Of a stretch of DNA of 64,000 nt, positions 2,130 to 27,860 are shown one piece after another. The stretch lies in NCBI RefSeq assembly GCF_029227855.1, contig NZ_CP074356.1; one strand, 5' to 3'. The position numbers and the translations under genes were made by a program. The number at the start of each line of letters is the position of its first letter. Position 1 is the first letter of the stretch. The notes beneath the pieces are model-generated. The model saw only the letters and a list, made by a program, of their open reading frames with translations, was not told where the DNA came from and searched no databases. Source of the DNA: Escherichia coli. GTDB lineage: Bacteria; Pseudomonadota; Gammaproteobacteria; Enterobacterales; Enterobacteriaceae.

Positions 2130-2508
2130 ATTCACCTTACCTAATTTGATTCTTCCAGGAATGCGTCGCACGTTGATAAACCTTCCACTGGCAACGAGTT
2201 ACCGATATGGACTCGCTCTCTGCGGATATCAACCCCTTGTCGTGACTCTGTTCACGAAAATTCAGGTGACTGAGTTAACAGGTCTTGGCCTACAGGCGCT
2301 ATAGCACGACGGAATTTTGGTCGAATGTCAAGCAAATCTATTGCCAGATTGACGAAAGCGTCACACTGTACCTGATAAAATCCGATACGCAACTTTATTA
2401 GCATGCAAAATCCAAAGTTGCCAGTAAGGCGCTCTTGCCACCAGCGTGGTATATTTGTCTGCAAGCCATGCCTGGCGTAGACTAATGTCCTTGTTTAAGG
2501 AGTAAATA

Positions 2509-2760
2509 ATGAACAAAGAGACACAACCCATCGACCGCGAAACGCTGTTGAAAGAGGCCAACAAAATCATTCGTGAGCATGAGGATACGCTCGCAGGGAT
2601 TGAAGCCACCGGCGTCACGCAGCGTAATGGCGTGCTGGTATTTACCGGCGACTACTTTTTAGATGAACAAGGATTGCCAACAGCCAAAAGCACCGCGGTG
2701 TTTAATATGTTCAAACACCTGGCCCATGTGCTTTCAGAAAAATATCACCTGGTTGATTAA
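2509..2760 (+). CDS. yciN: small conserved protein YciN (83 aa)
   Basis: ORF track 83 aa [27 protein letters not shown]...; matches recalled YciN; position between topA and sohB as in E. coli. Confidence 0.85.
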
Positions 2761-2795
2761 AGCAAAACGCGAGGTCTTAGCCTCGCGTTTGTCTT

Positions 2796-3845
2796 TTACA
2801 TCAATGGCTTTTGACCCCGCTGCCACCAGCGTAGCAACAATCGATCGGCGCTCTCTGCCGCGCTGCCGGTGAATCGGTCAATGAGTCGTTTACGCTGCAT
2901 ATAGCGTACATTGACCACTTCACGGCCTTCCATCAGGCTAAGAATAACTTCATCACTGGTGTTGATTTCATCAACCAGGCCTTTCTCTACCGCCTGTTGT
3001 CCGTACCAGTGTTCACCCGTTGCCACCTGTTCAATATCCAGAGACGGACGCATACGCTTCACAAAATCTTTAAATAACTGATGCGTTTCGTTCAGCTCTT
3101 CGCGGAATTTCTCCCGCCCTTCTTCGGTGTTTTCACCCAGCAAGGTCAGCGTGCGCTTATACTGCCCGGCGGTGTGCAGTTCGATATCAATATCTTTGCT
3201 TTTCAGGAAGCGGTTAAAGTTGGGCATTTGTGCCACCACGCCAATGGAACCCACAATAGCAAACGGTGCGGAAACAATTTTGTCCGCCACACAGGCCATC
3301 ATGTAACCGCCGCTGGCAGCGACTTTGTCTACCGTAACAGTTAAAGGAATGTTTTTATCACGCAGACGCTGCAGCTGCGAAGCCGCCAACCCGTAACCAT
3401 GCACCATGCCACCAGGGCTTTCCAGACGGAGCACAACCTGATCCTGCGGTTTGAATGCTGCGAGTACCGCCGTTATCTCTTCACGTAGCGAGTTCACTTC
3501 ATGGGCGTCCATGCTGCCTTTAAAATCCAGCACCCAGACGCGGGGTTTACTGTCAGTTGCCACCTCGCCCAGTTTGGCTTTCGCTTTTGCTGCTTTCGCT
3601 TCTTGCTTGTGCTTTTTCTTCTGCGCTTTGTGCCACTGTTTTTGCTGATGTGAGTCCATCAGCGCCGCGGCCAGTTCTTCTTTCATCTCCTTATACTGTT
3701 CGCTGAGATTGTTGACCCGTAACTCGCCACGCTGGCGTTTATTACGTTGAGCAACATTGACAATAATGGCGGCAATCGCCGCAATCGCTAGCACAACGGT
3801 AACGATTTTCGCCAAAAACAAACCATATTCAGACAACAATTCCAC
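2796..3845 (-). CDS. sohB: inner-membrane peptidase SohB (S49 family)
   Basis: 349 aa ORF with N-terminal TM segment (LAKIVTVVLAIAAIAAIIVNV) and peptidase core; conserved neighbour of yciN/yciK. Confidence 0.9.
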   Translation of the reverse strand: MELLSEYGLFLAKIVTVVLAIAAIAAIIVNVAQRNKRQRGELRVNNLSEQYKEMKEELAAALMDSHQQKQWHKAQKKKHKQEAKAAKAKAKLGEVATDSKPRVWVLDFKGSMDAHEVNSLREEITAVLAAFKPQDQVVLRLESPGGMVHGYGLAASQLQRLRDKNIPLTVTVDKVAASGGYMMACVADKIVSAPFAIVGSIGVVAQMPNFNRFLKSKDIDIELHTAGQYKRTLTLLGENTEEGREKFREELNETHQLFKDFVKRMRPSLDIEQVATGEHWYGQQAVEKGLVDEINTSDEVILSLMEGREVVNVRYMQRKRLIDRFTGSAAESADRLLLRWWQRGQKPLM

Positions 3846-24411: not shown

Positions 24412-25665
24412 GTGAGTCACTGGGCTACATTCAAACAAACAGCAACTAATTTATGGGTGACCCTACGGCACGACATTCTCGCGCTGGCCGTCTTTTTAAA
24501 TGGATTGCTTATTTTTAAAACAATCTATGGTATGTCGGTCAATTTGCTAGATATTTTCCATATCAAAGCATTTTCAGAGTTGGATCTCTCCTTGCTGGCA
24601 AACGCCCCACTCTTTATGCTCGGCGTTTTTCTTGTCCTGAACTCCATTGGCTTACTGTTCCGGGCAAAGCTCGCATGGGCAATCAGTATCATTTTGTTGT
24701 TGATAGCGCTAATTTACACCCTGCATTTTTATCCCTGGCTGAAATTTAGTATTGGATTTTGCATTTTTACGCTGGTGTTTTTGCTGATACTGCGCAAAGA
24801 CTTCTCCCACAGTAGCGCCGCAGCCGGGACAATTTTCGCATTTATTAGTTTCACGACGTTACTATTTTACTCCACCTACGGTGCGCTTTATTTAAGCGAA
24901 GGTTTTAATCCGCGAATAGAAAGTTTGATGACCGCGTTCTATTTTTCGATAGAAACCATGTCAACCGTCGGCTATGGCGATATTGTCCCTGTTTCTGAAT
25001 CAGCACGATTGTTCACTATTTCGGTCATTATTTCCGGCATTACCGTTTTTGCCACCTCCATGACTTCAATTTTTGGTCCGCTTATCCGCGGGGGATTCAA
25101 TAAACTTGTAAAAGGAAACAATCATACAATGCATCGTAAAGATCATTTTATTGTTTGCGGACATTCGATTCTCGCCATCAATACGATTCTGCAACTGAAT
25201 CAACGCGGACAAAATGTAACGGTTATCAGCAACTTGCCTGAAGATGATATCAAGCAACTTGAGCAACGCTTAGGTGATAACGCTGATGTTATCCCCGGTG
25301 ACAGTAATGACAGTTCAGTATTAAAGAAAGCAGGAATCGATCGATGCCGGGCCATTCTGGCTCTGAGTGATAACGATGCAGATAACGCGTTTGTTGTACT
25401 CTCGGCAAAAGATATGAGCAGTGATGTCAAAACAGTTCTCGCCGTCAGTGATAGCAAAAACCTGAATAAGATTAAGATGGTACATCCGGATATCATTCTC
25501 TCGCCGCAACTGTTTGGCAGCGAAATTCTGGCGCGAGTTTTAAATGGTGAAGAGATTAATAATGATATGCTCGTTTCAATGCTGTTGAACTCCGGTCATG
25601 GCATTTTCAGCGATAACGATGAACAAGAAACGAAAGCTGACAATAAAGAATCGGCGCAAAAATAG
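24412..25665 (+). CDS. kch: voltage-gated K+ channel Kch
   Basis: GTG start with SD GAGGTA gives 417 aa (M)SHWATFKQTATNLWV...; selectivity filter TVGYGD; C-terminal TrkA/RCK domain. Confidence 0.85.
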   Translation: MSHWATFKQTATNLWVTLRHDILALAVFLNGLLIFKTIYGMSVNLLDIFHIKAFSELDLSLLANAPLFMLGVFLVLNSIGLLFRAKLAWAISIILLLIALIYTLHFYPWLKFSIGFCIFTLVFLLILRKDFSHSSAAAGTIFAFISFTTLLFYSTYGALYLSEGFNPRIESLMTAFYFSIETMSTVGYGDIVPVSESARLFTISVIISGITVFATSMTSIFGPLIRGGFNKLVKGNNHTMHRKDHFIVCGHSILAINTILQLNQRGQNVTVISNLPEDDIKQLEQRLGDNADVIPGDSNDSSVLKKAGIDRCRAILALSDNDADNAFVVLSAKDMSSDVKTVLAVSDSKNLNKIKMVHPDIILSPQLFGSEILARVLNGEEINNDMLVSMLLNSGHGIFSDNDEQETKADNKESAQK

Positions 25666-25719
25666 ACTTTAAAGACGGAAGAGTAAACTTATTGGGCACC
25701 GCAATGGTGCCCAGTACAT

Positions 25720-25893
25720 TTAGATACTGTAGATCGCAAACAATAACGAGTTACGCTGTTTGTTTAGAATGCACTTCCTGATGCTGTGGATACGCATATT
25801 TCGGCGCGACTGCCCCTCAAGCCAACGCGATTTACGTCGGCTAGCCTGACGCTGCATGCGCCAGCGCCCCACTTCCGTTCTACTCCGCTTCAT
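25720..25893 (-). CDS. yciY: small basic protein (57 aa), possibly YciY
   Basis: Internal Met of the 94 aa track ORF gives MKRSRTEVGRWRMQRQASRRKSRWLEGQSRRNMRIHSIRKCILNKQRNSLLFAIYSI; matches my recollection of a 57 aa Arg-rich K-12 small protein between kch and cls. Weak evidence. Confidence 0.35.
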   Translation of the reverse strand: MKRSRTEVGRWRMQRQASRRKSRWLEGQSRRNMRIHSIRKCILNKQRNSLLFAIYSI

Positions 25894-26035
25894 GTTAACT
25901 ACTCTATGCAATAACAGAATGGTCATTATACCCCCGCCCCCGACGCTGACCAGTGCTTTTCCCGCGTTTTTATTTGCCAGATGAATCCATATGCGTAAAC
26001 TCATAACAATGCGCTTTCAAAAGGATTTCTAATCT

Positions 26036-27860
<1,825 letters not shown>

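Follow-up and report, generated by a model that had tools for sequence, protein, structure and literature searches.

The yciY locus

The window analysed here is a 64,000-nucleotide stretch of the Escherichia coli contig NZ_CP074356.1. It contains a small open reading frame on the minus strand, flanked by kch on one side and cls/clsA on the other (Table 1), which translates into MKRSRTEVGRWRMQRQASRRKSRWLEGQSRRNMRIHSIRKCILNKQRNSLLFAIYSI followed by a stop codon, a protein of 57 amino acids opening with MKRSRTEVGRWRMQRQ. The initial annotation had described a small arginine-rich frame within the kch-cls spacer, and both the translation and the flanking genes agree with this description.

The same annotation had tentatively equated the peptide with YciY of K-12, and this identification was confirmed. 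The counterpart in K-12 MG1655, b4595 (YP_001165316.1), is located between clsA and kch and is identical in 56 of 57 residues; the only substitution lies at residue 56, which is serine here and asparagine in K-12. The serine form is already deposited in RefSeq as WP_275877254.1, and RefSeq annotates yciY at identical coordinates in a 100%-identical strain. The NCBIfam model NF033701 (yciY_fam), for which the cut-off is 30 bits, matched the protein with 109.6 bits (E = 6e-32) over profile positions 1-55 of 56. Homologues are labelled PF26518:YciY in precomputed Pfam annotation, and a search of YciY against a copy of Pfam-A that does not include the PF26518 model gave no match. All features of the family were found, namely a length of about 57 amino acids, a start of the form M[KR][RH]SR..EVGRWRM, divergent orientation to clsA and occurrence in Enterobacterales. 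The known YciY family (b4595, NF033701, PF26518) has the same length, start codon, and position and orientation between kch and clsA as the frame in the window. There is very little doubt that this frame is yciY, a real and translated gene. Both the gene and its translation were already known; the observation is right, though not novel.

A 701-bp query around the frame was recovered with at least 95% identity in 5,422 of 5,426 complete E. coli genomes, and 'yciY: YciY family protein' is annotated at the locus in all E. coli matches listed. Thirteen of 5,430 matches to the kch-yciY-cls segment in complete E. coli assemblies were on plasmid-classed records, which may reflect wrongly assigned replicons or the capture of large chromosomal pieces.

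Table 1. Features of the yciY region in the window
Feature	Position	Strand	Description and evidence
kch	24412..25665	+	Flanking gene, convergent with yciY
GC-rich hairpin	25690..25716	both	Core GGGCACC-N5-GGTGCCC at 25694-25712; lies where kch and yciY converge, between their stop codons
yciY CDS	25720..25893	-	57 codons + TAA; ATG at 25893-25891; translation, RefSeq, NCBIfam NF033701, dN/dS, TetRP, Venus fusion
94-aa open reading frame	25720..26004	-	Contains the 57-aa frame
Upstream part of the 94-aa frame	25894..26004	-	Not coding; yciY 5'UTR, promoter and divergent clsA promoter region read in frame
AGAG Shine-Dalgarno-like element	25902..25905	-	8 nt 5' of the ATG; read from sequence
-10 hexamer TATAAT	25925..25930	-	Promoter scan; transcription predicted to start near 25918 (about 1308763 in K-12), with a 5'UTR of some 25 nt
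-35 hexamer TGGTCA	25947..25952	-	Promoter scan; 16-bp GC-rich spacer to -10
clsA promoter-like site TTGCCA-16-TAAACT	25974..26001	+	21 bp between its -35 and the yciY -35; back-to-back
cls/clsA	26036..27496	+	Flanking gene, divergent from yciY

Coding status and start codon

About 80 species-level Enterobacteriaceae loci were retrieved, and 80 unique coding sequences were compared. Variation was found at 51 of 55 third codon positions, at 26 first positions and at 21 second positions, and pairwise dN/dS had a median of 0.073 and a maximum of 0.30. The yciY frame is far beyond a chance open reading frame, as the concentration of changes at third positions together with the low dN/dS marks a coding gene under purifying selection. 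Met1 is kept in 166 of 167 unique YciY homologues, and the motif following it is likewise conserved.

Translation in K-12 has been documented earlier. Published tetracycline-inhibited ribosome profiling (TetRP; PMC4909307) lists a start peak at the ATG of the 57-amino acid yciY with a value of 192.4 against 4.17 in the neighbouring column and 46 in a ratio column, the column meanings being our interpretation. In that study, a chromosomal yciY-Venus fusion provided the positive control, both in LB and in glucose minimal medium (PMC4909307). The sequence surrounding this ATG is conserved. The initial annotation had held that missing ribosome occupancy and missing conserved homologues would speak against the gene; ribosome occupancy is published, with the peak at the 57-amino acid ATG in the data considered (PMC4909307), and homologues of YciY are conserved.

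A longer minus-strand frame of 94 amino acids contains the 57-amino acid frame, and the proposal that the longer one is an artefactual extension was borne out. It is very improbable that the 94-amino acid frame is the real product and the shorter form an internal fragment. In Escherichia, and in part of the Klebsiella and Trabulsiella sequences, no stop codon interrupts the longer frame, and its N-terminal stretch of about 20 residues seems conserved; however, this conservation in Escherichia and Klebsiella coincides with the promoter and 5' region of clsA on the opposite strand. Depending on the genus, the open frame 5' of Met1 extends over 3 to 91 codons, and in Cedecea, Kosakonia, Pluralibacter and others a stop codon closes it only 3-10 codons before Met1. 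The conserved -35 and -10 elements lie downstream of the 94-amino acid ATG, inside the extension, and the -10 box changes frame between genera, giving GIM or GYN readings, which also argues against the longer product. NF033701 aligned to residues 38-92 only of the 94-amino acid sequence. The 57-amino acid model is correct and the 94-amino acid frame is an artefact, because the TetRP start and the Venus fusion support the shorter form, the frame closes in other genera and the N-terminal conservation coincides with the clsA promoter and 5' region. The gene model is thereby settled at 57 and not 94 amino acids.

Long frames 5' of yciY, of 71 and 91 codons, were also seen in Citrobacter amalonaticus AUH_CA_2023_1 and Kluyvera genomosp. 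3 YDC799 (L016 and L044). In the former, the match to clsA begins only at residue 155, and in the latter clsA has a full-length identity of only 67%, which suggests either assembly indels or real disruptions of clsA in these two loci.

Promoter, 5'UTR and probable terminator

The promoter scan identified a TGGTCA-16 bp-TATAAT promoter for yciY that matches the consensus in 10 of 12 positions. An exact TATAAT was present in 84 of 87 loci and was located 29-33 nt 5' of the ATG in 81 of those, and TGGTC[A/T] was the commonest -35 hexamer at 16-bp spacing (45 of the 84 loci, across genera). In an alignment of 81 upstream regions the AGAG block was at least 95% conserved, and a GAG, AGG or GGA motif occurred within 16 nt before the ATG in 84 of 84 loci. 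GC content is 77% in the six bases past the -10 box and 68% in the spacer, compared with 42% for the region overall. A perfect -10 box, a 16-bp spacer and a GC-rich discriminator are features of the class of promoters repressed by ppGpp/DksA, to which rrn and ribosomal-protein promoters belong. By analogy, the yciY promoter resembles this stringently controlled class, which hints at growth-rate-coupled expression.

In the intergenic alignment, both hexamers of the clsA promoter-like site belong to blocks of high conservation. Upstream of clsA (25974-26035, plus strand), the blocks conserved across genera are TTGCCA, GCGTAAACTC and AAAAGGATTT, corresponding to a promoter-like -35, a -10 and a Shine-Dalgarno-like element. 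A/T tracts lie between the -35 hexamers of yciY and clsA and could act as shared UP-like elements.

Downstream, the stop codons of kch and yciY are convergent and 54 bp apart, with the GC-rich hairpin between them. Its minimum free energy is -17.7 kcal/mol on the yciY strand (z -3.1) and -23.2 kcal/mol on the kch strand (z -4.2). The same stem sequence is found 3' of the yciY stop codon in other genera irrespective of the downstream gene (median z -2.9 in 87 loci), and in many genera A/T runs flank it, as is typical of a bidirectional terminator. The E. coli hairpin has no clear U-tract, and the terminator scan made no call there. The hairpin is a probable bidirectional terminator or 3'-end structure, and the yciY mRNA would accordingly be monocistronic with a length of about 235 nt.

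Searching Rfam permissively returned just two matches, both sub-threshold and both on the plus strand within 25573-25717 and outside the coding sequence, in the 3' end of kch and the kch-yciY spacer. The one at the 3' end of kch (25573-25608) was to CRISPR-DR35; it reached 26 bits where the gathering score is 35 (E = 0.01), is present as a single copy inside coding sequence and is almost certainly due to chance.

Gene neighbourhood

The genes yciY and clsA are divergent in 81 of 81 Enterobacteriaceae loci, with start codons 136-146 bp apart. Three contexts from more distant Enterobacterales have a gap of 191-253 bp, and one of these distant lineages has lost the yciI-tonB neighbourhood and retained the clsA-yciY pairing. 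No insertion between yciY and clsA was found in any locus examined. This invariant pairing could reflect functional coupling or, equally, interlocked promoters that do not tolerate insertions.

The other flank is variable. Only in Escherichia loci does kch lie between yciY and yciI, and in most other Enterobacteriaceae yciI follows 45-60 bp 3' of yciY. Several Citrobacter, Kosakonia and Cedecea loci have unrelated inserts of 0.5-2 kb 3' of yciY, and in one further locus (L087) a chemoreceptor gene is found. The 3' flank of yciY seems to tolerate insertions, and kch seems to be one that entered in the Escherichia lineage. In E. coli TBE6 (NZ_CP154401.1) an IS5-like element of the ISKpn26 family (2374-3354) lies between kch and yciY, at a site equivalent to about 25666-25719 of the window. 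The alignment breaks exactly at the yciY stop (query base 221, window position 25720), and yciY is intact.

Features of the YciY protein

YciY contains 13 arginines and 4 lysines. The initial annotation had given 30% Arg/Lys for the N-terminus; its arginine-rich character was confirmed, whereas the figure is that of the whole protein (17/57), and the N-terminal share is higher, with 15 of the first 40 residues (38%) and 8 of the first 20 (40%). With only two glutamates, the net charge is +15 and the pI 12.0 at a mass of 7.1 kDa. Five of the 13 arginine codons are rare ones, compared with 26% in the long open reading frames of the window.

AlphaFold2, run with a 32-sequence alignment, predicted one continuous helix over residues 5-56 with a mean pLDDT of 91.9. 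Invariant or nearly invariant residues are E7-Q16, R19-R20, R23-N32, R34-I35, I38-K40, L50 and F52, where positions 7-13 are partly fixed by the motif used for sequence collection and are also invariant in an independent alignment. As the invariant residues are contiguous, every face of the helix is conserved. The arginine-rich helix includes two invariant RW motifs and invariant glutamine, serine and glutamate residues, and the C-terminus carries a conserved hydrophobic LLFAI stretch.

Among 167 unique sequences, the arginine positions are occupied by arginine in 87-100% and by lysine in at most 2%, whereas lysine positions 2 and 21 change to arginine in 11-17% of the sequences. Since arginine positions are rarely lysine while lysine positions exchange with arginine, this substitution pattern suggests that guanidinium-specific contacts, and not charge alone, may have been selected.

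An amphipathic or membrane helix was considered and rejected. The maximum hydrophobic moment over 18 residues was 0.54, no higher than in shuffled sequences (0.53 +/- 0.11). No hydrophobic segment is long enough to span a membrane, the longest stretch comprising about 8 residues at a GRAVY of -1.10.

Distribution and distant relatives

An exhaustive profile search of 1.84 billion representatives yielded 39 clusters only, and those inspected were YciY-like sequences or fragments; outside the inspected set was one match of 819 amino acids with five short matched stretches. Wherever a homologue has a reliable organism label, it comes from Enterobacterales. A sequence labelled Listeria monocytogenes (P0045) is an enterobacterial-type YciY, and a locus labelled Chryseobacterium sp. 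18061 (L068) has the complete clsA-yciY-yciI-tonB arrangement with about 90% identity; both labels likely stem from contaminated or mislabelled assemblies.

A profile search of the PDB returned mitochondrial uS14 as the sole match (E = 0.32). Direct comparison with E. coli uS14 by hhalign gave a probability of 0.2%, and the match was treated as a chance effect of composition. Foldseek found no PDB match for the AlphaFold2 model, as expected for a lone helix. Taken over the PDB profile search, hhalign, Foldseek and Pfam-A, no homology to an RNA-binding or ribosomal protein was detected. PHROG and PADLOC had no match for YciY and thus pointed to no phage or defence-system relatives.

Possible functions of YciY

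YciY almost certainly has a function, because strong purifying selection acts on what is a complete and conserved transcription unit. The likeness to ribosome- or nucleic-acid-binding microproteins suggested in the initial annotation is a reasonable conjecture that agrees with several sequence features. As to the nature of the function, we tentatively favour binding to structured RNA or to the ribosome through the arginine-rich helix, a reading that we hold with less than even confidence. The small gene is transcribed divergently from clsA, the cardiolipin synthase gene, and consists of a sigma-70 promoter of its own, 57 codons preceded by a 5'UTR of about 25 nt, and a hairpin terminator. The arginine-rich helix (residues 3-40 or so) would dock into a structured polyanion, most probably RNA, be it rRNA in the ribosome or a specific transcript. 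The hydrophobic LLFAI terminus might provide a second contact for self-association or for a partner, and a role coupled to growth would fit the stringent-type promoter. A helix enclosed by its ligand is suggested by the conservation on all faces; a burial in a polyanion is further suggested by the arginine-specific conservation, the invariant tryptophan, glutamine and serine residues and the lack of amphipathicity. On the other side, the 5 of 13 rare arginine codons are unlike those of stoichiometric ribosomal proteins, and a lone predicted helix may say little about the tertiary context.

Two groups of known proteins are instructive for comparison. ARM peptides such as those of lambda and P22 N, HIV Rev and BIV Tat share with YciY a short arginine-rich helix with conserved Gln/Asn/Ser and Trp and a preference for arginine over lysine. 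The hallmark of these peptides, arginine identity beyond mere charge within a helical segment, was found in YciY (pLDDT 92; 167 sequences). The likeness is a functional analogy only, since ARM peptides form the N-terminus of phage and viral regulators, whereas YciY is a free-standing chromosomal protein of 57 amino acids without shown sequence homology to them. The small, very basic ribosomal or ribosome-associated proteins bL34, bL36 and Sra/bS22 and the N-terminal helices of uS14 are comparable to YciY: they are of similar size, with a pI of about 12 and predicted helices, and have a GC-rich discriminator in the promoter. YciY has no significant similarity to them, uses rare arginine codons and, in contrast to core ribosomal proteins, is confined to Enterobacterales.

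Alternatively, YciY might be a small regulator that binds one larger protein, with the helix as interaction surface and the charge incidental, which we regard as rather unlikely. Such a role would fit the strict conservation on all helix faces and the hydrophobic LLFAI patch at the C-terminus, and many characterised small proteins of E. coli act by binding a larger protein (10.1101/511675). However, protein-protein interfaces would hardly be expected to carry so extreme a net charge as +15 within 57 residues, and the gene context yields no candidate partner besides clsA.

The pairing with clsA leads to a further proposal, in which YciY belongs to the cardiolipin or anionic-lipid pathway, either because its helix binds cardiolipin- or PG-rich membrane or ClsA or because its promoter is co-regulated with that of clsA. 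This proposal ranks behind the regulator in our estimate and is improbable. It draws on the divergent arrangement in every locus examined, on the insertion-free spacer compared with the highly variable other flank, and on the retention of the pair even where downstream synteny is broken. Peptides rich in arginine and tryptophan commonly bind anionic lipids, which also counts in its favour. Nevertheless, the hydrophobic moment is at the level of shuffled sequences and mean hydrophobicity is very low; arginine is not exchangeable with lysine, which would be unexpected for simple electrostatic lipid binding. Back-to-back promoters intolerant of insertions explain the fixed spacer equally well, and adjacency inside a single order may be plain inheritance.

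A leader peptide or upstream open reading frame, for example one sensing arginine, or a non-coding or antisense RNA with an incidental frame would agree with the small, arginine-rich, intergenic nature of the frame and its convergence on kch, but is very unlikely: no co-directional gene lies downstream, the next one being convergent, selection acts on the whole amino acid sequence and not on arginine codons alone (dN/dS 0.07), a conserved terminator hairpin directly follows the stop codon and no Rfam family matched; the substitution pattern already amounts to an effective refutation, and for the leader peptide the convergent downstream gene adds to the grounds for rejection. The probability that remains beyond these readings belongs to functions not considered here.

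Returning to the binding of RNA or the ribosome, a more specific version would see YciY as an Enterobacterales-specific RNA- or ribosome-binding microprotein whose rrn-like stringent promoter is fused back-to-back with the clsA promoter. This combination is speculative and, taken as a whole, improbable. The arginine-specific conservation, the conservation all around the helix, the stringent-type promoter and the clsA pairing offer handles for a functional study of YciY. If the combination of a stringent promoter with an RNA- or ribosome-binding YciY were true, the translation or growth-rate status of the cell would be tied to cardiolipin synthesis.
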